Source: a virus
Lineage: Duplodnaviria > Caudoviricetes
DNA length: 52,923 nucleotides
Virus record (IMG/VR): IMGVR_UViG_3300016474_000485
Span: 1-52,923 of that record
Strand: one strand, 5' to 3'
In this document: piece after piece, positions 4,718 through 20,687 of the stretch
How the letters are laid out: each line of letters begins with the position of its first letter
Position numbering within the stretch: the stretch's first letter is position 1
Notes under the pieces: model-generated
Told to the model about the DNA's origin: nothing
The model's database searches: none
The model's input: the letters and a program-made list of their open reading frames with translations, nothing else
Translations under genes and position numbers: made by a program

Positions 4718-4945
4718 TTAATCTTCAGTATATCTATTCTTATGGATTAATATGGTAGTATGCGCTTTTTTTAAAGCATTTTCACCACCACGTAAACTAA
4801 CCACTTTCTTACCATTAGTGATAAACATCATTTTACCTTCTAATCCTTTAGTAGTTTTAACTAAATTATCTGAATTACCAGTTACAATAGTCAATTTGTG
4901 TTTTTGAATTAGTTCTCCTAATTCTTTGTAAAATTCATAAGTCAT
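4718..4945 (-). CDS. Hypothetical protein
   Basis: 75-aa ORF directly after the Rnl1 gene. Confidence 0.55.
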   Translation of the reverse strand: MTYEFYKELGELIQKHKLTIVTGNSDNLVKTTKGLEGKMMFITNGKKVVSLRGGENALKKAHTTILIHKNRYTED

Positions 4946-4947
4946 AA

Positions 4948-6066
4948 TTATAACATTTTATATAACAATTTGTCATCGTAGTTTAACATATATTCTTTAA
5001 TTGATTCCACCTTACCATCAACCAAACCAAAATACATCCCAGTAAACATCTTTAAATCGTGTTTAGCGGTTATTTCCATTAATGATATAGCAAACCTCTT
5101 TCTTTCACCAGAAGATGCGTCAGAAGGTCTTATTTTATCCAATTCGAACCATAATGATTCAAGTTTGGATACTAATTTATCGTATCCGTCTTTTAATCTA
5201 TATAATTCTTCTCTTCTGTCTGGAAATGTTGAAGCGAACTCCTCAAGTTCATTAGTCTTGATGATAGTCATTATGTTGTGTTCAGCTGTTTTACCTTTTA
5301 AGTGGTGAACCGCCAAATATGCTGGGTTTTTTATTTTAACCCTGTTATCATTACCATCTCTAACAACGTAACCTTCTTCAGACCATGGCATGCCAATTAA
5401 TGTATTTGCCAATTCATAAGCATCTGAAACATTTAAATCATATGATTTAACCAATGGAATTTCCAATGATTCTGAAACCATAAATAAGTCAAATTGTGAT
5501 AATTCTTTTAATGTTAATCTGTTTCTAACTGCCAACAATTTTGCTGATGATTCACCATGTGGTGTAACAACAATATTATATGGTGTTGTTAATTCAAAAA
5601 CATACACATGGTCTTTATCAAGTAAACAATCATTAAAATTATATTTGTTATTAACAGTATCCCAAAACAACTGATTAAATGTTGTTCCGTATTTGTTATT
5701 AACTTCACCTTCACCGTTTGCGGTTCCAGTAGTTCCAGCATACCACATCATATCATGCCAGTCCCAATAAACTTGTATCATGGTACCATCTTCTTTATTT
5801 AAGATATGTGCAGTGTCCCAGTCTATTTTAGTTGCATGTATTTCGCCACTATTAAAGAATTTTCTAAAAGCTAGCGACATTACTTTCCAAGTGGTTTTTT
5901 CAAGTATTATACCTCTACAATCTTGAACTTCCGATAATGACATATTAGATTCTATTTGGTTATATTTTAATAGAACTTTATGTTCGTATTCTTTACATAC
6001 CAAATTAAATTCAGATATTGCTTTATCTAAACCATTTTTATTTATATATTCTACTATTGACAACAT
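4948..6066 (-). CDS. RNA ligase, T4 Rnl1 family
   Basis: LKYNQ, CRGIIL, AFRKFFN, motif I KEDGTM, FELTTPYN, EGYVV, RVKIKNPAY. Confidence 0.85.
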   Translation of the reverse strand: MLSIVEYINKNGLDKAISEFNLVCKEYEHKVLLKYNQIESNMSLSEVQDCRGIILEKTTWKVMSLAFRKFFNSGEIHATKIDWDTAHILNKEDGTMIQVYWDWHDMMWYAGTTGTANGEGEVNNKYGTTFNQLFWDTVNNKYNFNDCLLDKDHVYVFELTTPYNIVVTPHGESSAKLLAVRNRLTLKELSQFDLFMVSESLEIPLVKSYDLNVSDAYELANTLIGMPWSEEGYVVRDGNDNRVKIKNPAYLAVHHLKGKTAEHNIMTIIKTNELEEFASTFPDRREELYRLKDGYDKLVSKLESLWFELDKIRPSDASSGERKRFAISLMEITAKHDLKMFTGMYFGLVDGKVESIKEYMLNYDDKLLYKML

Positions 6067-6119
6067 AATAAATTATTTATGTTGCAAATATAGAAATTAA
6101 AAATAATATAAACAAATAT

Positions 6120-7505
6120 TTATTTGATTATTTTTTTGGTTGTACCATCACTGTATATGATTATAATAGAACCATCATAATCACTATTGACTTCTTGACC
6201 TAATAGATTTATGTATTTTACAACATAGGCAACATTTTTACTGTTGTTAATAGATATTGGACCATATCTATCATAATCACCGTTTATATCATATTGTATT
6301 AACCTGTAATAGTTAACAATTGGTTCAATGTTATAATCATTAGTTGAATAGTTTACTAACATAGTTGAGTTACCCATTGCGTTTAATGATGATACTACTT
6401 TCCAATATTCACCGTCTACGCTTTTCTCCAAATCAAAATGACTACTATTATTCTCACTAGCTGTAGCCCAATATAATGTGTTATACCCATTATTATTTAT
6501 ACCATCAAACTTAATTAATTCAACTGGTAAAGCGGTACCATCCGTTATTGCTATTTTTATATTTGGTCTAAACCCATCTCTAGTACCATCAACCGTTGGG
6601 TAAGATGCATCTTGATAATAATACCCAACTGTTGCAGTTTTTGATGTGTAATAAAACATGGGATAATTTGATGAGAATGTACCTTCTCTATTTTCGTATT
6701 TTATTAATAGGTTGTCTGTGTTGTTCCATGGAAATGGTGTATCCAAAACAATTTCAACCCACCCAATGTTCCAGGTTATTGTACCACTAAAAACCAACAT
6801 GTAATTTGATGAAGCGTAATTTGTTTGAGCGTTTTCTTTAACAGCAACACTAGGAAATGTTGAATATGTTGTGTGGGCCATATATATTTTTTGATTCTCA
6901 GCAACATATGTTGCTGGTAGTGTTGGCTCAACTTGAAACCTTATTTTAGTTATGTTTCCAGCAAAATTTATTTCTGATTGTAAGTAAATCAATTCAGACC
7001 ACCCATATTTGTAATAATGATTAACTGGAACTTGATAAACAACACCCTCACCGCTACCTATTGAAACAATCGTACTACCAGATGTGCTACCCATTTGATA
7101 TTTTATCTTGGCATTAGCATTCAATGCTGAGCATGTTGATGTTGCTGACCATCTGGTCAAAAAAACTGAATAAGTACCAGAAACTGAACAATACCAAGTT
7201 ATTTCGGATTGTGTATTATTGTAATCATCACTTTCAGCTAATATTGTACCACCAGTTGCTGTATTATACAACCTAAGATAAGTATCAACGGTTGTTTGAC
7301 CAACCGTTGAAAATGTATATTCATTACCAGCAATTGCATTAAATGTAAAAGCTCTTCTACCAGTAGAATATGTGGTTGAATACTGTACCGATGTAGTTGG
7401 CGTTATTACGTCATTAGTCGTTGCTGTATTACAAAACTGTGAATAAGCAAAGTTGTTTAACAATATCACTATTGTTAAAATTAGTAGTTTAGTAATAGTA
7501 TTCAT
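6120..7505 (-). CDS. Secreted beta-rich protein resembling Bacteroidota T9SS cargo
   Basis: Signal peptide from MNTITK, ALPVELIKFDG...LYWATASENNSSHFDLEKS module, C-terminal NLLGQEV...IYSDGTTKKIIK. Confidence 0.7.
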   Translation of the reverse strand: MNTITKLLILTIVILLNNFAYSQFCNTATTNDVITPTTSVQYSTTYSTGRRAFTFNAIAGNEYTFSTVGQTTVDTYLRLYNTATGGTILAESDDYNNTQSEITWYCSVSGTYSVFLTRWSATSTCSALNANAKIKYQMGSTSGSTIVSIGSGEGVVYQVPVNHYYKYGWSELIYLQSEINFAGNITKIRFQVEPTLPATYVAENQKIYMAHTTYSTFPSVAVKENAQTNYASSNYMLVFSGTITWNIGWVEIVLDTPFPWNNTDNLLIKYENREGTFSSNYPMFYYTSKTATVGYYYQDASYPTVDGTRDGFRPNIKIAITDGTALPVELIKFDGINNNGYNTLYWATASENNSSHFDLEKSVDGEYWKVVSSLNAMGNSTMLVNYSTNDYNIEPIVNYYRLIQYDINGDYDRYGPISINNSKNVAYVVKYINLLGQEVNSDYDGSIIIIYSDGTTKKIIK

Positions 7506-7607
7506 AATATTAATATTATATAATCTAAAATATAAATAGTTTAGTAATGACAAGTAAACAATTTATATACTGAAAATAATGTTTAATATTATGTTATTTT
7601 TTAATAA

Positions 7608-7901
7608 CTAATCTTTATTCTTGATAATTTTTATTAATTTATCAAGTTCTTCAAATGATAACCCATGTAATAAGTCAAGTATTTCACTATCCTCCATCAT
7701 GTTTTTAGCGGCCAACATACCACATAAGTCCGAAAATAACCTAATATCATCCTCATCATATATTATTGAGCTTAAAAATAACATTATATTACCAATGTTG
7801 TGGATATTAAAATCATCTTTTTCAATACCCTCCATAACTAGGGCTTCACCAATCTTTAAGATTTTTATACCTAGTTCTGAATATCTTTCTTCATTTTTCA
7901 T
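7608..7901 (-). CDS. Hypothetical protein
   Basis: 97-aa ORF behind a TATATTTG promoter element. Confidence 0.6.
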   Translation of the reverse strand: MKNEERYSELGIKILKIGEALVMEGIEKDDFNIHNIGNIMLFLSSIIYDEDDIRLFSDLCGMLAAKNMMEDSEILDLLHGLSFEELDKLIKIIKNKD

Positions 7902-7933: not shown

Positions 7934-8410
7934 TTAAATAAACCACTCTGGTTTGTTTCTATTTTTCCAAGTTGACATATCTCGTTTATGTGTTAAATAA
8001 TATAACCTATAAGATTCAACAGCAGTTTTTGTTTTGCATTCATCTGGCATTGCCAAAGCAAATGGTGTTATATCACCATTCTCTTTTAAATTTGGTTTAT
8101 TAATTAAACACCACTCAATAATGTCTTGCGACTTGTGTCTTTTACCATATCTGTAAGTATATTCTTCACACAAAGCCAACCCCAAATCACATAACCAAAT
8201 GTAGTTCTCAACACACTGTCTAGCCCATATTGAACATGGGTGATTCTTGTGTGATAACTTGTACGGTACTTGTTCCGTAGTTAGGGGGTCAGTCATATGG
8301 TGAACACCACATAATAATTGGGCACTTTCCAAAATCATTTTTACCACATGTTTGTCGTTGTGCATCTTAGCAGCAACTTGTGGATTTTCGTCTAAAACAA
8401 ATATATTCAT
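7934..8410 (-). CDS. Pyrimidine-dimer glycosylase-like protein
   Basis: MNIFVLD...DKHVVKMILESAQLL, HKNHPC, EYTYRYGKRH. Confidence 0.7.
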   Translation of the reverse strand: MNIFVLDENPQVAAKMHNDKHVVKMILESAQLLCGVHHMTDPLTTEQVPYKLSHKNHPCSIWARQCVENYIWLCDLGLALCEEYTYRYGKRHKSQDIIEWCLINKPNLKENGDITPFALAMPDECKTKTAVESYRLYYLTHKRDMSTWKNRNKPEWFI

Positions 8411-9368: not shown

Positions 9369-9482
9369 TTACGGTACCCCTCTCATGATAATCAATATCT
9401 GAGAGGGGCGACTTACTTCTTTACCTAATTTATTATAACCAATTGATTCTCTTAGAATCTCTTTTATCCTTTCTTTACCCAT
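9369..9482 (-). CDS. Second (replacement) kinase N-terminus, 37 aa, in frame with the kinase body and separated from it by one TAA
   Basis: MGKERIKEILRESIGYNKLGKEVSRPSQILIIMRGVP-TAA-PGSGKST. Confidence 0.7.
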   Translation of the reverse strand: MGKERIKEILRESIGYNKLGKEVSRPSQILIIMRGVP

Positions 9483-10309
9483 ATTTTATACTTTTCTTCA
9501 TACCTATCAGTAAATTTTATTCTTTTATTTTCATACAAATATACTATTTCTTCATCACTTAAACAAGGAATTTCTGATAATTTATAAATTAAACCGTTAT
9601 TATTACAATAATTAACACCAGCTTCTTTTTTTAAAACCACTGTTTTACTAGACCATAAACTCTTAGGTTTAACCTCAACCATATATTTACCCTCAATAAT
9701 AAAATCTGGGAAATAGTTTCTAAGTAAACCATTGTAATCCTCATATTGAATTTTCCAATTGTTAGTTTCTCCAGATTCCCATTTAAGATTATAACGTTCA
9801 ATTATTTTAATCATATAGCTAAGCTCCCTAATACTCCTAAAAAACCAACCATTATACCAACCAGACCACCCATTACCAGAACCATTAGGTGATGGTTTGC
9901 CATACATTGAATTATTCACACCAGAATTTAATTGCGATTGTTTTTCACGATACTCTAACATTTTATTGTCAGCTATTTCTTTACCATATTTATCCAACCA
10001 AACATCATAAAATGACTTACCATACATTGAGTTATTGGAACCTTTAGATAATTTAGATATTTTATCCCTAAACTCTTTAGTTTTGTATTTCGAATAATCC
10101 CTACCATCTATTATTTTAATTTTACTTTCTTCAGTATGTTTTTTACCATAGAAAGGATTTAATTCACCAATCTTACCGTACATTGCATTGCGTTCACCAC
10201 TTGATGCGCATCTCCTACAAAGTCTATTATTTTTTATGGCATTATTATAACCACTTTCACTTTTGTAAGTGATTTCATCACCACATTCTGGACATTTTCT
10301 TTTAAACAT
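9464..10309 (-). mobile_element. Putative homing endonuclease (Zn finger, NUMOD3-like repeats, TnsA-like PD-(D/E)XK domain) inserted in the kinase gene
   Basis: CPECG, NPFYGKKHTEE, NSMYGK repeats, FRSIREL...YFPDFII...VEVKP; flanked by 12-bp direct repeat CCAGGTTCTGGT (9357-9368, 10378-10389). Confidence 0.8.
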
Positions 10310-10494: not shown

Positions 10495-10532
10495 AAAGCA
10501 AAAGTATTAATAATTTTTAACTTAAACAAATT

Positions 10533-10922
10533 TTATTTAGTTTTTTTTACAACTCTACGTTTTTTTGCTTTTACAACTGGTTTCTTTTTAGATTTAGGTT
10601 TTTTCTTTTTTATTTTAGCTTTTTTGGTAAACCCACCAATACCACCAACCTTTAGATTCATACAATTACCATTTCTAACTTTATTCATGGTAACAATCTC
10701 TCTCTCCCTTTCAGCTAATAATTCTCTACTCTCAACCATCTCAAGTATTTCAACCTTGTGGTTTTCTTTACCATATCGTTTAATTGAGAACTTCAATGCT
10801 TTACCAGAACCCATATAACCATCATCAAGGTTATCGGTTGAATGCATACCAATATAATATTTTTTATTGATTAAACATGTGGTTTTATATATAATATGGT
10901 ATTTCTTTTCCTTATTACTCAT
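10533..10922 (-). mobile_element. GIY-YIG (Seg-like) endonuclease with a basic tail
   Basis: IIYKTTCLINKKYYIGMHST...YMGSG. Confidence 0.8.
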
Positions 10923-11013
10923 ATTACATAAATATCTACATATTGGTAAGTAATTTTAGTTATTCGTAGCGGAATGTACCAAAAAATGGTAGTTTCCGCA
11001 ATAAATAACTAAG

Positions 11014-11103
11014 CAGAGAGAATGGGATTCGAACCCATGGGACCCATTTTTAGGGTCCACCACATTAGCAGTGTGGCCACTTAATCCTCTCGTGCACCTC
11101 TCT
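11014..11103 (-). tRNA. tRNA-Ser(GCT)
   Basis: CCACA-CTGCTAA-TGTGG arm, long variable arm, GGTTCGAATCC, G73. Confidence 0.9.
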
Positions 11104-11110
11104 GTGATAG

Positions 11111-11183
11111 TACCCCCACAGAGATTCGAACTCCGATACTGGCCTTAGAAGGGCCATGTCCTATCCAGTTGAACGATAGGGGC
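11111..11183 (-). tRNA. tRNA-Arg(TCT)
   Basis: TGGCC-CTTCTAA-GGCCA, canonical cloverleaf. Confidence 0.9.
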
Positions 11184-11192
11184 ATGTTGTTG

Positions 11193-11265
11193 TACCCTCG
11201 ACTGGATTCGAACCAGTATTTTTGATTTCGTAGACCAAGGTTCTAATCCATTGAACTACGAGGGC
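11193..11265 (-). tRNA. tRNA-Arg(ACG)
   Basis: TTGGT-CTACGAA-ATCAA, acceptor GCCCTCG/CGAGGGT. Confidence 0.9.
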
Positions 11266-11283
11266 ATAAGTTTATATATTTTG

Positions 11284-11353
11284 TAGCGACTGTGGGGTTC
11301 GAACCCACTTGACCATCCATATGAGGGACGGTTGTTTTCCACTAACTATCGCC
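11284..11353 (-). tRNA. Atypical short tRNA(CAT), Met or Ile2
   Basis: ACCGTCC-CTCATAT-GGATGGT, normal T arm, shortened D region, about 70 nt. Confidence 0.65.
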
Positions 11354-11362
11354 ATTATAGTG

Positions 11363-11451
11363 TACAGACGGCGGGATTCGAACCCACGTTTGATGTTATC
11401 TCAACAACCGCTACGAGTATAGAAGATATAAGCTTCCATCGGTACATCTGC
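11363..11451 (-). tRNA. Atypical tRNA-like RNA with a TAT (Ile) anticodon-like loop
   Basis: Acceptor GCAGATG/CGTCTGT, T arm GTGGGTTCGAATCCCGC; hairpin TGGAAG-CTTATAT-CTTCTA only 6 nt after the acceptor strand. Confidence 0.55.
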
Positions 11452-11461
11452 ATTTCAGTTG

Positions 11462-11547
11462 TCGGTAGGGTGGGACTCGAACCCACATCGTGCTTTAACA
11501 CCCAGCGTATCAGGCTGGTCCCTGTAAACCAATTCGGGTACCTACCG
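11462..11547 (-). tRNA. tRNA with GAT (Ile) anticodon and a long variable arm
   Basis: CCAGC-CTGATAC-GCTGG, variable hairpin GTGT-TAAA-GCAC, A73. Confidence 0.8.
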
Positions 11548-11567
11548 TTTTTTAGGTGGAAGCCTCA

Positions 11568-11762
11568 TTACTTCCACCTTGTTTTTCTGTTGTGTTTCCA
11601 CGTTTTGTATTCTCTCCATTTATGATTGGGTAGATTGCCGTGGCTCCAATTCCACCCATAATCCCACATATCATAACCATAAATGGTCATCCATAGAATG
11701 CAGTTGTATTCTTTAGATGTTTTTGCTTTTTTCAGTTTTGCTCTGTTAATATTTTTACTCAT
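11568..11762 (-). CDS. Small basic Trp-rich protein inside the tRNA array
   Basis: 64 aa, 7 Trp, ends YKTWKHNRKTRWK. Confidence 0.6.
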   Translation of the reverse strand: MSKNINRAKLKKAKTSKEYNCILWMTIYGYDMWDYGWNWSHGNLPNHKWREYKTWKHNRKTRWK

Positions 11763-11828
11763 AAGCTTTACTGTCTGTTGTTTAGCAGACCTTAAAGCTT
11801 GTCAAATTCCTTTTTCATATTTTTAATT

Positions 11829-12221
11829 TTATAAACCCCTATAATATTTACTTCTAGGTCTACCATTTTTATTAGCACCCTTATATGTTGATGTTAATGA
11901 ATGACAATTAGGGCATAATAATTTTAAATTATCTAATGAATTATTAGTAAAATCACCATCAATATGTTCTAATTCAATTGGTATGTTTCCAGTGTATTTA
12001 TTTATTTCACACCACCCACACTCCATACATTTCTCACCATTAATTTTAATTAGATACCATTTAATCCATTTTGCCGTTGCTGTTTTTCCTTTCATACCAT
12101 CATTTTTACCTTCTAACCATAAATTAACCTTTTCCATTCGTTGGTAATCTTGCTGACATTGAGTTGAACAAAACTTCAACCCAGGTTTAATTTCCATATT
12201 ACAATTTTTACATTTACACAT
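11829..12221 (-). mobile_element. HNH endonuclease in the tRNA array
   Basis: LEHIDGDFTNNSLDNLKLLCPNCHS. Confidence 0.85.
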
Positions 12222-12289
12222 AAGTTTTTATATATAAATATTCAGTGGTTTCTAAAACTACTGTATTTATAGAAATTATTTAGTCAATG

Positions 12290-12372
12290 CGGAAGGAGGG
12301 GGAATCGAACCCCCAAAGCTTTTACACCCAGCCGCTTTCAAGGCGGTGTCCTCGTCCATTCGGGCCCCTTCC
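12290..12372 (-). tRNA. tRNA-Ser(TGA)
   Basis: CCGC-CTTGAAA-GCGG, long variable arm, G73. Confidence 0.85.
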
Positions 12373-12428
12373 ATTATTAGCTTATAACCTTATATTATAA
12401 CATTATAAGGTTATAGACTTATATTTTG

Positions 12429-12499
12429 CACACCCACAAGGATTCGAACCCTGACCAAGAGATTTGGAGTCACTTATGCTACCGTTACACCATAGGTGT
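12429..12499 (-). tRNA. tRNA-Trp(CCA)
   Basis: Loop CTCCAAA, acceptor ACACCTA/TGGGTGT, G73. Confidence 0.85.
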
Positions 12500-12517
12500 G
12501 TGTTTTATTTACCAATA

Positions 12518-12528
12518 TGTCAAAGAAC
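12518..12528 (-). promoter_or_regulatory. boxA-like antitermination element
   Basis: GTTCTTTGACA in the His-Trp tRNA spacer. Confidence 0.5.
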
Positions 12529-12536
12529 CTTTGTTG

Positions 12537-12622
12537 GGTGTCTAACGGGGATTGAACCCGCATGTCTTATAAGACCCCTGTTTCACAGACAGGTGTGGCA
12601 AACCAATATCCACCTTAGACAC
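12537..12622 (-). tRNA. tRNA-His(GTG) with a long variable arm
   Basis: CCTGT-CTGTGAA-ACAGG, variable hairpin GTCT-TATA-AGAC, C73. Confidence 0.8.
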
Positions 12623-12624
12623 AG

Positions 12625-12699
12625 CTCTGGGGGTGGGACTCGAACCCACTATCCTCGGCTTAACAGGCCGTAGCTATATACCACTTAAGCTTCCCCAGA
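12625..12699 (-). tRNA. tRNA-Asn(GTT)
   Basis: CGGC-CTGTTAA-GCCG, acceptor TCTGGGG/CCCCAGA, G73. Confidence 0.9.
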
Positions 12700-12867
12700 A
12701 TTTATAGTGACAAAGATTGTTACTTTACCACCTTTCTTTTCAAATTTCAGATTACCGTTGTAACCCATATTTTTTGCTTTCACATTGTATTCATCACAAA
12801 TCTTATCAAAGTCTTTTTCAAAATCTGATACCTTTACAGTTCCCAATGTTCTCACCAATTCTTCCAT
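12685..12867 (-). CDS. Hypothetical 60-aa protein, first gene after the attenuator
   Basis: ATG 12 nt after the terminator U-tract; 3' end overlaps tRNA-Asn by 15 nt. Confidence 0.5.
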   Translation of the reverse strand: MEELVRTLGTVKVSDFEKDFDKICDEYNVKAKNMGYNGNLKFEKKGGKVTIFVTINSGEA

Positions 12868-12878
12868 AAATTTATGAC

Positions 12879-12911
12879 AAAAAAAAACTCGACTTAGTTT
12901 CCTAGGTCGAG
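12879..12911 (-). terminator. Intrinsic terminator (attenuator) upstream of the tRNA array
   Basis: CTCGACCTAG-GAAA-CTAAGTCGAG followed by T9. Confidence 0.85.
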
Positions 12912-12939
12912 CTTTTGTTATTTATTGTTTAACTAAAAA

Positions 12940-13032
12940 TTACATCACAATTTTTAACATACCAGACCTAGTTTGCAGACTATTGCGTCTCCAATTACTA
13001 ATCGACATTCTATGTATGTTATTTGTTATCAT
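12940..13032 (-). CDS. Leader peptide of the tRNA-array attenuator (30 aa)
   Basis: MITNNIHRMSISNWRRNSLQTRSGMLKIVM; codons 4-18 match the array anticodons. Confidence 0.8.
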   Translation of the reverse strand: MITNNIHRMSISNWRRNSLQTRSGMLKIVM

Positions 13033-13068
13033 TTTATTTTTTTTTATTTGTTTCTAATTAAATATATG

Positions 13069-13099
13069 CAAATATAGTAAAAGTTTTTTTATTTGTCAA
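13069..13099 (-). promoter_or_regulatory. Bacteroidota-type promoter for the leader/tRNA operon
   Basis: TTGACA (13094-13099), 17 nt, TATATTTG (13069-13076; TAnnTTTG consensus). Confidence 0.7.
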
Positions 13100-13104
13100 G
13101 TTTT

Positions 13105-13740
13105 TTACAATAAATTTTTAAACATTTCATCAATTTTCCATTTAGGCATGTCTAAGTCCATGCTAAATAATATATTTCTCATCTTTTCTTCTTCTTCTCT
13201 TTGTTCATTAACAAACCCTAATGCAAATGAATAAGTATCATTATCGTCTTCAGATTTTGCTTTGTTTGCGATATCATTCCAGTTTTTGGTAACTTTCATT
13301 TCATGTTCCAAAGCTTTTTCAACCAAATCTCTAATGTCTTTAAATTCTTGTGGCACATTTTTAACATTTGGAACTAATGCTCTAGCATTTTTCTCATAAA
13401 GATATTTATATACCTTTGACATATGAGCCAATTCTTCATCAGCATATTTGAAGAATAACTCAGAGCCACCAATCCAACCTTCATCGTCTAACCAAGCACT
13501 AAATGAACGATATATTTGAGATGAATATAATTCATTCTCAATTTGTTTATTTAAGATACCAGTAATACCTTTGCTTAATCTTGGTTTTTGTTCGATAGAA
13601 TTTTTCTTAGCTTCTTCAGTTAAGATATTCACATCTTCACTTCTCTTTATTTTGTTAAATGTATCAGCAAAACCCTCCAATAACGCTTTTTGTCTTTTTA
13701 AGGCTTCTTCTTTTCTTTTTGCTTCTGATATAATTTTCAT
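13105..13740 (-). CDS. ftnA: Ferritin with an N-terminal extension of about 50 aa
   Basis: QIENELYSSQIY, EELAHM, ALEHEMKVT, EQREEE ferroxidase pattern. Confidence 0.8.
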   Translation of the reverse strand: MKIISEAKRKEEALKRQKALLEGFADTFNKIKRSEDVNILTEEAKKNSIEQKPRLSKGITGILNKQIENELYSSQIYRSFSAWLDDEGWIGGSELFFKYADEELAHMSKVYKYLYEKNARALVPNVKNVPQEFKDIRDLVEKALEHEMKVTKNWNDIANKAKSEDDNDTYSFALGFVNEQREEEEKMRNILFSMDLDMPKWKIDEMFKNLL

Positions 13741-13774
13741 AATTAAAATTTATTAATAAATATCCAAAATAAAC

Positions 13775-13800
13775 AAAAAAACCACTATTAAAGTGGTTTT
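13775..13800 (-). terminator. Intrinsic terminator after cca
   Basis: AAAACCACT-TTAAT-AGTGGTTTT with T-tract. Confidence 0.65.
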
Positions 13801-15028
13801 ATATTAGTTGTTTAAATTTTTCAATTTCCATAGCATTTATGGCTTTACCTAACTCTGGTCCAGGTTTTTCTATTTTGTATTTCTCCATAGCTTCTGGACC
13901 TGTAACTTTAGGTAATTTTAAATAATCTTCAAATGAATCCAATAATTGTGAATTCATACCCATATTACCACCAAAATTTCTTAATTGGTCATTTGATAAC
14001 CCAGATTTTAAAAATAAATCTTTTAACTTTGGTGCAATTTCAATATCCAAATCCAACATAGCAATCAATGTTGTTATTTTTTTAACTTCATCTGAACTAT
14101 ACTTTAATTGATTTAATTTTTTAGCCAAATCAGATAAATCATTTTTATGTAACAACATCGCAATTAATACAATTGGGTCATCTCTATCTATAAATTTACT
14201 TCTATCAATATTAAGACCCTTAAATACCCAATTAAATAAGTTGTACTTATCTATTAGTTCTAAATATTGTTTAGTTGATTTTGCTGATGCTAAACCTTTA
14301 ATAAATTCATCTCTGATTCTTTCACCAGAGATACCTTCCAAACTAGAATCTTTTTGTAATGCAGCATCAACATCTTTATCCAATTCAGACCCAAATCTAC
14401 CAGCAAATCTAATTGCTCTTAATATCCTCAATCTGTCTTCACCAAATCTAGCTTCCGCACCGCCAACAGTTTTAACTGTGATTTTGCCATTATCAGCATC
14501 TACTATTTTACCATCCACTACTTTTTTACCAAGATGCTCAATACCACCAACAAGGTCAACAACTTCACCAGTTTCAATATCATAAAATAATGCATTAATT
14601 GTTAGGTCTCTCCTAGCTACATCACCTTCAATGTTTGTGAATGAAACAGCATCTGGTCTTCTACCACCAGATAAATCATTCCTAAACGTAGCGATTTCAT
14701 ATTCACCTTGGTCGGTGAATACATTAATAACACCAAATGCTTTACCAGTTGGCAATGTTTTAAGTCCAGCTTTAGCCATCATTTGTTCAACCTTGTCTGG
14801 TTCAGCATCTGTAGCCAAATCATAATCCTTAGGTGTTTTGCCTAATATTGCATCTCTAACTGCACCACCAACAACATATAACTTATGTCCGTTTTTGACA
14901 AATACATTTTTGATGTCTATGATATCACTAGGTATGGGCATGTCCATTTTAACCCTAATTGGTTTGGGTGTTTGCTTCATTTCTTTTATTATACCTTCTC
15001 TCAATATTTGTCTTATTGTTTCTTTCAT
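13799..15028 (-). CDS. cca: CCA-adding tRNA nucleotidyltransferase
   Basis: VGGAVRD, KDYDLAT, EIATFR, RRDLTINAL, EDRLRILRAIRF, SGERIRDE. Confidence 0.9.
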   Translation of the reverse strand: MKETIRQILREGIIKEMKQTPKPIRVKMDMPIPSDIIDIKNVFVKNGHKLYVVGGAVRDAILGKTPKDYDLATDAEPDKVEQMMAKAGLKTLPTGKAFGVINVFTDQGEYEIATFRNDLSGGRRPDAVSFTNIEGDVARRDLTINALFYDIETGEVVDLVGGIEHLGKKVVDGKIVDADNGKITVKTVGGAEARFGEDRLRILRAIRFAGRFGSELDKDVDAALQKDSSLEGISGERIRDEFIKGLASAKSTKQYLELIDKYNLFNWVFKGLNIDRSKFIDRDDPIVLIAMLLHKNDLSDLAKKLNQLKYSSDEVKKITTLIAMLDLDIEIAPKLKDLFLKSGLSNDQLRNFGGNMGMNSQLLDSFEDYLKLPKVTGPEAMEKYKIEKPGPELGKAINAMEIEKFKQLI

Positions 15029-18818: not shown

Positions 18819-18844
18819 TTATTGCTCAAGCACAGTTTGAGTCG

Positions 18845-18928
18845 TTGCGGGGGTGGGACTCGAACCCACGAGGTCTTTCGACACCAGGTTATGAGCCTGG
18901 CCAGCTTCCAACTACTAACTACCCCGCT
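18845..18928 (-). tRNA. Initiator-like tRNA-Met(CAT) with a long variable arm
   Basis: A1/A72 mismatch, GCGGGG/CCCCGC, CCAGG-CTCATAA-CCTGG, variable hairpin GTC-GAAA-GAC. Confidence 0.8.
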
Positions 18929-20163: not shown

Positions 20164-20314
20164 ACTTTTTTATTTTAGTTTAATTTTATTACTAAGTTTA
20201 ATTAAAAATTATTAAAATGTAAATAAAAACCCAGCATGCGTTTTATGCTGGGTTAATTTTTTCTAACCTGTTAGGTAATTTGCTTTGGTTAGAAGCTTTT
20301 AGCATTTTAAATAG

Positions 20315-20687
20315 TGGAGATGGTGAGATTCGAACTCACGTCTTACTTATTCTCAAAAAGCTTTCTACATGTTTAGGTTGTAATTTAATCTAATTACCCA
20401 AAATCCTTACAGTTCCCTTATTACAGTTCGGTTTACTGAAAACTAATCTTCTGCTTATTTAGTTTAGACTCCAATAAGTTAGAGGTTTTGGTGGACTACC
20501 ACCATCGCATTATCTTAGGCTAATGCTACCTCTCCTTCGAATACTTCTACCGAAGCATTCTCTAGGAAGTTTTCGTCAATGTCAAATGAATTGCCATTTA
20601 CAAAATCGATAGGTAATTAAAGTGTTTCCATCTAACACTACATGCTTACTAGACAAGACCATAAATAATCAATGCCGTGTCATCCCC
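20315..20687 (-). ncRNA. ssrA: tmRNA
   Basis: 5' GGGGATG / 3' CATCTCC-A with G3.U70, T arm GTGAGTTCGAATCTCAC, tag frame 20515-20595 ending VALA-stop. Confidence 0.9.

Follow-up and report, generated by a model that had tools for sequence, protein, structure and literature searches.

The window analysed here is a 52.9-kb fragment of a virus genome (IMG/VR virus record IMGVR_UViG_3300016474_000485, Duplodnaviria, Caudoviricetes; positions 1 to 52,923), and the element under study is the leader region that heads a transfer RNA (tRNA) array in it. Read in the direction of transcription, a promoter, a short leader open reading frame (ORF), an intrinsic terminator, a 60-amino-acid ORF that we call ORF60 and the tRNA array follow one another, all on the minus strand. 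A sequence-only reading of the window had recognised the layout of trp/his-type attenuation in this arrangement, with a leader whose codons name the anticodons of the tRNAs downstream. The leader ORF of 30 codons plus a stop codon (MITNNIHRMSISNWRRNSLQTRSGMLKIVM; 13032..12940) is present in the ORF list where that reading had placed it and is open in homologues. Its codons 4 to 18, which we call the sensor (13023..12979), are exactly those that had been given, and all belong to the 18 codons that the array can read. Further along the leader lies region 2 (CTAGGTCTGGT; 12971..12961), the 5′ strand of a putative antiterminator, which was delimited by its range of folding partners and by its covariation with the 5′ arm of the terminator. 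The terminator itself (12912..12879) consists, again as had been claimed, of a stem-loop (12912..12888; hairpin −15.3 kcal/mol) followed by nine T residues (12887..12879), and the first gene 3′ of it is ORF60 (12867..12685), whose 3′ end overlaps the tRNA-Asn gene.

The promoter (13099..13069) is of the Bacteroidota type, with TTG at 13099..13097, a 20-nucleotide (nt) spacer and TATATTTG at 13076..13069. The sequence-only reading had described it as TTGACA with a 17-nt spacer, and scored as a sigma-70 promoter it matches 11/12 positions as TTGACA-17-TATATT; both descriptions fit. The form TTG/TAnnTTTG, which we take to be the Bacteroidota promoter consensus, fits the window promoter, and the promoter is conserved across a 9-sequence alignment of relatives. 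The window has 22 copies of the pattern TTG-N17-21-TAnnTTTG, as against 11.4 (standard deviation (SD) 3.5) in Markov-1 simulations, and several copies of TTG/TAnnTTTG precede window genes, including those for transfer-messenger RNA (tmRNA) and the CCA-adding enzyme. The gene ahead of the promoter (13740..13105) is ferritin-like (Pfam Ferritin, E = 1e-31). Between the promoter and the leader ATG, which has an A-rich stretch upstream of it, sequence and alignment reveal an A-rich 5′ leader (13068..13033) with a conserved CATAT(AT)TTA motif. In its longer form, CATAT(AT)TTA(T/A)T, this motif occupies 13057-13068 on the minus strand and the same site in relatives, between the −7 box and the leader ATG, and in many relatives a small GNRA-type hairpin, for instance GGGGTAACCC or CGGAGAAATCC, lies 3′ of it. 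Family C, one of the further leader families described below, differs in that the motif precedes the −33 box. Possible roles for the motif are those of a second promoter or of a 5′ stabiliser.

The array behind ORF60 is a tandem series on one strand, in which both ARAGORN and Rfam recognise tRNA-Asn GTT (12699..12624), tRNA-His GTG (87 nt; 12622..12536), tRNA-Trp CCA (12499..12428), tRNA-Ile GAT (11547..11461), tRNA-Arg ACG (11265..11192), tRNA-Arg TCT (11183..11110) and tRNA-Ser GCT (11103..11013), the last gene of the array. ARAGORN also calls tRNA-Ser TGA (12376..12289), for which the best Rfam model is tRNA-Sec at 34.9 bits, below the cut-off of that family, and a tRNA with the anticodon CAT, either Met or lysidine-Ile (11356..11283), which reaches only 22.1 bits in Rfam. 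The sequence-only reading had counted ten tRNAs, and nine of these are firm by ARAGORN, with seven above the Rfam tRNA cut-off. The tenth, an 89-nt RNA at 11451..11363, is only marginal: it scores 27.9 bits with the Rfam tRNA model as against a 29-bit cut-off and is left untyped at a relaxed ARAGORN threshold. Its acceptor stem and T arm are good, it has a long insert, and inspection by eye finds a UAU anticodon-like stem-loop. Relatives carry tRNA-Asn or untyped tRNAs at the position of this RNA, and tRNA-Ile-TAT was found in 4 of 37 relative arrays. The tRNA-His of the window also matches the Rfam 'skipping-rope' RNA at 32 bits (cut-off 36.7), and the first tRNA-His of the array in relatives measures 72 to 87 nt by ARAGORN.

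Under standard wobble, the array anticodons read 18 codons, which make up 29.3% of the codons in the long ORFs of the window. The 15 consecutive in-set codons of the sensor form the longest such run over all six frames of the window, the runner-up having 11, and a geometric estimate of the chance of 15 consecutive matching codons gives 0.0019 expected runs of at least this length in the window. The probability that 15 in-set codons cover all ten decoding classes is 0.0045. Rare codons are among them, TCG accounting for 0.16% and CGC for 0.02% of phage codons. The earlier claim that all 15 codons are read by the array stands at 15/15 if the marginal RNA and the CAT tRNA both work, and otherwise falls to 14/15. 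An AT-rich spacer that happens to contain a short ORF of common A/T-rich codons would be another account of the match, and in-set codons are indeed common, at 29-31% of codons; the number of runs expected in the window argues against it, as does the behaviour of the sensor in relatives, to which we now turn.

Related IMG/VR contigs found through flanking proteins carry a leader region that is about 80% identical to that of the window and always lies just upstream of an ORF60 homologue; we refer to these leaders as family A. Two DNA patterns retrieved 36 unique leader regions, a set biased towards conserved leaders, and the leader frame is open in all 36. A leader-independent set was built by an alignment search with ORF60, which gave 111 loci, 99 of them unique and 79 with enough flank, and this route yielded 45 unique leader ORFs, again all open. 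Across relatives the ORF spans 25-34 codons, with in-frame indels and a variable tail. In the 79 ORF60 loci, the longest in-set run in the upstream short ORF is bimodal, with values of either at most 7 or at least 13. Leader and tRNAs occur together at 42 of these loci, a leader alone at 1, tRNAs alone at 4 and neither at 32 (Fisher P = 1.4e-16, with related contigs treated as independent). The presence of the leader tracks that of the tRNAs in this set, which makes the leader a companion of the array rather than of ORF60. The arrays behind family-A leaders are themselves narrow in content: in the 37 whose flank is 3 kb or longer, Asn, His, Trp, Ser, Ile, Met and Arg account for 321 of the 338 tRNAs. 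One contig, L001/L009, carries a tandem pair of family-A modules (in L001 at ~6706-6920 and 8232-8398), each with its own ORF60 paralogue.

The substitutions that separate these leaders stay within the readable set. In 46 aligned leaders, 41 of 52 nonsynonymous variant states of the sensor are in-set, where a null of one-step codon neighbours gives 0.38 (P = 2e-9, uncorrected for relatedness), and 6 of the 11 out-of-set sensor states fall in the first codon of region 2. The amino-acid swaps are non-conservative (I/N, M/R, H/R and I/R), and Ser changes codon box. The Lys codon AAA, one step away from several sensor codons, does not figure among the codons listed at positions 4-18 in the same 46 leaders. 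In the most divergent cases, L102/L132 and L149, the residues are reordered, their composition is the same and the antiterminator is still cognate. With conservation and selection of the element seen in dozens of contigs, and AAA kept out of the sensor, a chance origin of the codon match is scarcely credible. Covariation of single tRNAs with single codons within family A (Met codons with CAT tRNAs, TCT codons with Ser-GGA tRNAs) was tried as a separate line of evidence and rejected; it is suggestive at most or contradicted, and is confounded by truncated loci.

These patterns also bear on the idea that the ORF, flanked by a promoter and a terminator of its own, simply encodes a small protein: the peptide would be the product, and its amino-acid likeness to the array incidental. 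Such a gene would be conserved and open, as this one is; position 18 stays Ser across codon boxes (AGT, AGC, TCT and TCG), and the tail classes DIIEF/W, GGTEV and NFFDDF are conserved. However, a peptide under selection for its own function would hardly be expected to keep non-conservative and even reordered sensor residues within the set, and the covariation of its coding 3′ part with the terminator arm, described below, would be superfluous for a plain gene. The ORF is moreover tied to tRNA arrays, three more families with other amino-acid sets exist, and it has no Pfam or PHROG match. We consider a small-protein gene very unlikely. Among family-A leaders in general, the variable C-terminal tails belong to a small number of conserved classes, with DIIEF or DIIEW, GGTEV, NFFDDF and FNYIVGL endings. 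These lie outside the codon-sensor model, and might affect ribosome release or be a trace of inner helices of the antiterminator.

All family-A leader regions whose flank was long enough (34/34) have a hairpin with a T-run, the energies ranging from −12.9 to −18.4 kcal/mol. For the pairing tests, region 2 was taken as the 22-24 nt after codon 18 and its partner as the 5′ half of the terminator. In permutation tests that treat related contigs as independent, the summed energy of region 2 paired with the arm of its own locus was −285.7 for 21 classes, compared with −200.4 (SD 11.4) for permuted arms, and −594.7 for 45 leader-independent pairs, compared with −390.6 (SD 17.6); none of 100,000 permutations reached the observed value in either case. 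Examples of the paired strands are CTAGGTC/GACCTAG in the window, GAGACG/CGTCTC in L012, GAAGTGGG/CCCACTTC in L102 and GAATTCGGT/ACCGAATTC in L134. When the window transcript is cut before the 3′ arm of the terminator, the nested antiterminator is its minimum-energy fold, so that the nested hairpin (CTAGGTC/GACCTAG) that the sequence-only reading had proposed to capture the 5′ arm of the terminator does form in the truncated transcript. With ribosome-covered segments masked, the antiterminator of the cut transcript forms for A-site positions at codons 4-16 but no longer for those at codons 18-28. A competing duplex of an upstream segment with region 2 (1:2, the anti-antiterminator) is predicted at −14.4 kcal/mol in the window as against −14.8 kcal/mol for the duplex of region 2 with the terminator arm (2:3). 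With an open frame and a terminator throughout and covariation in the antiterminator, the trp/his-type layout is borne out.

The same features could belong to an untranslated RNA switch, whether riboswitch-like, T-box-like or protein-binding, in which the open frame is accidental. Conservation in the sensor at the nucleotide level would suit such a switch: TCG is found at codon 10 in 44/44 leaders and TGG AGA in nearly all, and the motif ACATA is common to several families. Part of this conservation, however, stems from the retrieval of loci by DNA patterns, and more than 45 divergent forms all keep the frame open, their indels being in-frame and their tail variable. The composition of the sensor is kept where its order is not (L102, L149). 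An Rfam cmscan search of 10500..13500 at E ≤ 1 found no leader family over 12870..13100 and no T-box or other match there. Taken together, these data make an untranslated switch extremely unlikely.

If the leader senses the tRNAs of its own operon, leaders ahead of other arrays should name other codons; this is what we find, and we regard it as the decisive result. Four large relatives (three of them 100% and one 86% complete by CheckV estimate) have 22-65 tRNA matches each, in several clusters, and short ORFs upstream of each cluster were scored against the anticodons of that cluster. DNA patterns, after filtering of mostly chance matches, gave at least 4 modules of a family B and at least 4 of a family C, and BLAST in five large contigs added more. 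These further leader families share the build of family A, with a promoter, a short ORF, a cognate antiterminator and a terminator. Family B (for example MKTQTTYQTQYQPKGGKPFRSTGCVMFSDLTTI in L202) stands ahead of Pro, Lys, Gly, Gln, Tyr and Thr tRNAs, family C (MRNTFNILVLLSLCLLVETQLGFLCVN in L196) ahead of Cys, Val and Leu tRNAs, and family D (MRTLTNIFDFAFFAAEEDYSYGRSNTVIS, also in L196) ahead of Phe, Glu, Asp and Ala tRNAs. Pooled by family, the arrays serve HIMNRSW in A (35 arrays), GKPQTY in B (7), CLV in C (5) and ADEF in D (5); these sets are disjoint and jointly comprise all 20 amino acids. Leader residues 4-17 belong to the family's own set in 99% (A), 96% (B), 70% (C) and 67% (D) of cases, against backgrounds of 31, 31, 15 and 23%, and to any of the other three sets in 0-21%. 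Leader codon content and array anticodon content thus covary between arrays in related phages, as the proposal of a codon-reading leader predicts. Two arrays of odd composition also have fitting leaders, L175 (Glu, Tyr, Ile, Gly and Ala) with 13/14 residues in its set and L130 (Ser, Trp and Arg) with 10/14. Complete B arrays read 11-13 of the 14 sensor codons if wobble is strict and 13-14 if U34 reading is expanded.

The switch itself is likewise found outside family A. Terminators are present in 21/21 modules of families B to F, and the own-arm pairing sum of these families is −250.0 compared with −190.7 (SD 10.4) for permuted arms, a value that 0 of 100,000 permutations, again with related contigs treated as independent, reach. 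In 15 of the 21 modules the first tRNA begins 3-14 nt past the T-run, which identifies the tRNAs as the regulated genes. Among the tRNA-bearing regions examined in the four large relatives, 17/21, 51/62, 37/45 and 31/38 of the tRNAs lie behind such leaders, the second and fourth of these counts being those after discarding false modules and adding one family-C leader missed by the regular expression. The window fragment holds the A module only. The second array of genome G001 has no matching leader at its very start and has a family-B leader further in, after two tRNAs; the region of ~380 nt at the start of this array has no Rfam match. In L080, a complete 287,855-bp relative, a promoter is followed by a GC-richer stretch of ~380 nt (~6090-6470, minus strand), and this by tRNA-Gln-CTG and tRNA-Met. 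The stretch looks structured, contains GAGGAAAG and has no Rfam match at E ≤ 1 beyond two chance-level ones, and a TnpB-like ORF of 393 amino acids (6704-7885, minus strand) lies just upstream. Three giant relatives have a tRNA with a CTA anticodon beside tRNA-Cys (L192 at 8805, L197 at 1578 on the minus strand and L201 at 5107), outside the leader-headed arrays; ARAGORN labels it 'Pyl', and it reads as an amber-suppressor type. A tRNA with a TCA anticodon lies inside the D array of L202. Together, the CTA- and TCA-anticodon tRNAs hint at stop-codon reading in the giant-phage lineage.

From this evidence, we consider it probable that the leader region is a trp-type ribosome-dependent transcription attenuator, which sets the transcription of the tRNA operon by the speed of the ribosome on codons of the operon's own tRNAs. 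In this model, RNA polymerase would start at the 13099..13069 promoter and a ribosome would translate the 30-codon leader, whose codons 4-18 demand Asn, Ile, His, Arg, Met, Ser and Trp, the seven amino acids of the array. When these tRNAs are plentiful, the ribosome would pass region 2 to reach the stop codon; region 2 would then be masked, or recaptured by the upstream segment that contains ACATA, the terminator hairpin (12912..12888) would form and the polymerase would stop at the T-run. When any cognate charged tRNA is scarce, the ribosome would stall within the sensor and leave region 2 (12971..12961) free to pair with the 5′ arm of the terminator on its emergence; with the terminator blocked, the polymerase would continue into ORF60 and the tRNA genes. 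The outcome would be negative feedback on the phage tRNA supply, with the leader acting as an OR gate over roughly nine tRNA species. Such product feedback is the simplest interpretation, and it agrees with the model put forward in the sequence-only reading. Ribosome stalling, a natural signal in tRNA abundance rather than charging, and the physiological trigger are all points that we infer. The sequence-only reading had named cleavage by a host anticodon nuclease as an example of such a trigger, and this is speculation, one possibility among several.

The identity of the signal is where the closest alternative lies. The same attenuator could respond to host amino-acid starvation through uncharged tRNA, which would tie the tRNA operon to host nutrition. 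As trp and his attenuation illustrate, a stalled ribosome is blind to the difference between a missing and an uncharged tRNA; both would stall it alike and the anatomy of the leader would be identical. However, extra tRNA gives no relief from amino-acid starvation, and the match between a leader and its own operon, which recurs in four families and in two odd arrays, is a prediction of product feedback and not of a general starvation signal. We therefore regard starvation as an unlikely signal.

Several observations weigh against the attenuator model as set out above. Folding of the full-length transcript at equilibrium keeps the terminator for nearly every position of the ribosome, so that folding with ribosome-masked segments agrees with the model for the truncated transcript and not for the complete one; since the equilibrium fold keeps the terminator, the switch would have to be kinetic, as in known attenuators. 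The 1:2 helix is weak, with a family mean of −11.2 kcal/mol and a mean z of −1.2 against shuffles, and ACATA is found in 65/71 leaders and its partner motif in 51/71, mostly missing in family D. Leaders C and D are just ~70% in-set. For ATA and ATG in the window, the only readers are the low-scoring CAT tRNA and the marginal tRNA-like RNA. The leaders of L003/L014 retain AAT, AAC and TCG codons with no Asn or Ser-TGA tRNA found by ARAGORN, and the sensors of L107, L138 and L142 hold Met codons with no CAT tRNA in the stretch examined. Discordant loci include L126, which has a leader with no tRNA within 5 kb, L073, likewise within 4.5 kb, and L123, L130 and L164, which have tRNAs and no leader. 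In L096 the leader lacks its 5′ half. RNA runs gave small shares (at most 0.11); the short contigs of relatives in them covered the tRNAs, ORF60 and the leader's 5′ part, and showed no start, end or read-through. Finally, the model assumes that transcription and translation are coupled in its uncultured host. The L096 locus (a 353 kb contig with terminal repeats; ~4860-5000) has also lost the start codon and has kept region 2 and the terminator; from its loss of the 5′ part of the leader, constitutive antitermination is predicted there.

Leader-peptide attenuators are known from the trp, his, leu and phe operons of Enterobacteria, and Rfam holds Trp, His, Leu and Thr leader families. The leader described here resembles these in having a short ORF with regulatory codons close to the promoter, an intrinsic terminator and an antiterminator that shares the 5′ arm of the terminator, and, as proposed here, in that the position of the ribosome selects the fold. 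Its rare synonymous sensor codons, TCG and CGC, recall the rare CUA codons of the leu leader. Unlike in those operons, the regulated genes are tRNAs and not biosynthetic enzymes, the sensor covers seven amino acids and some nine tRNA species where theirs covers one, and the system is phage-borne, with a Bacteroidota-type promoter and no Rfam leader match. Multivalent attenuation of ilvGMEDA, ilvBN and thr is similar in that several amino acids are represented in one leader and a shortage of any of them relieves termination. There, however, the two or three amino acids are those made by the enzymes of the operon, whereas here the list corresponds to the tRNA products of the operon, and four paralogous leaders split all 20 amino acids. 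The pheST attenuator and the T-box also place genes of the translation apparatus under termination and antitermination by the state of the tRNA pool, but these control synthetases or amino-acid genes, with one tRNA each. The T-box moreover binds uncharged tRNA without a ribosome, whereas the leader described here has no T-box match and its conserved open frame points to translation. We know of no leader-peptide attenuator for the T4 tRNA cluster, and a literature search gave none. In the titles and abstract openings that this search covered, there was no account of a leader ORF or attenuator ahead of tRNA genes in cells or viruses, in agreement with the sequence-only reading, which knew of no described multi-tRNA-sensing attenuator on a phage tRNA array.

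The array region contains protein-coding genes that the sequence-only reading had overlooked, namely ORF60, an HNH-type endonuclease ORF inside the array (12221..11829; HNH_3 E = 6.5e-4, below the Pfam cut-off) and a 64-amino-acid ORF from the ORF list, also inside it (11762..11568), both on the minus strand. ORF60 represents a conserved family of proteins of ~57 amino acids that, in family A, always lies between the terminator and the first tRNA. Its predicted fold is beta-alpha-alpha-beta-beta (AlphaFold2, predicted local distance difference test score (pLDDT) 84.7); it has no Pfam or PHROG match, its best fold match in the PDB has an E value of 0.55, and none of its 51 homologues has an informative annotation ('hypothetical' at most). 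Three homing-endonuclease-like ORFs lie in or beside the array (10533-10922, 11829-12221 and 9464-10309, all on the minus strand). The first is a GIY-YIG ORF (10922..10533) whose DNA matches T4 segB at 76% over 128 nt, the second is the HNH-type ORF and the third is NUMOD3/TnsA-like. In T4, segB lies in the tRNA region of the phage (PMC2330249), and there as here a tRNA cluster is interrupted and flanked by HNH and GIY-YIG endonuclease genes. Against deposited phage genomes, blastn of 10500..14000 matched the tRNAs and the segB-like stretch only. Other translation-related genes of the window form a dense cluster with the array: a tmRNA (20314-20687), with a TTG...TATATTTG promoter at 20742-20712, a second CAT tRNA (18844-18928) and a CCA-adding enzyme (13799-15028), all three genes on the minus strand. 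In tblastn searches, the CCA-adding enzyme had matches of at most 36% identity, the best of them to uncultured huge phages, and no cultured relative was found.

Looking across the four families, we lean towards a wider picture in which the paralogous attenuators A to D would form a tRNA homeostasis network of a lineage of uncultured giant phages. Each would govern one operon, together they would monitor all 20 amino acids, and the phage would top up whichever quarter of its decoding capacity is failing, whether through its own shut-off of the host, a mismatch in codon usage, or an immunity that cuts or depletes tRNAs. Leader-peptide attenuation is textbook knowledge for amino-acid operons, and our literature search gave no report of tRNA genes under its control. 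If the model is correct, phage tRNA genes would be under feedback and not constitutive, a single leader would be an OR gate over about nine tRNA species, and one ancestral leader would have been rewritten four times, with each tRNA operon reading its own products. The sensor cassettes might also be used as compact, programmable devices that report on tRNA pools, or on immunity directed at tRNAs, in Bacteroidota. The finding bears on why and when large phages need tRNAs, a question that would become testable because the leaders would be natural codon-specific reporters of tRNA sufficiency during infection.

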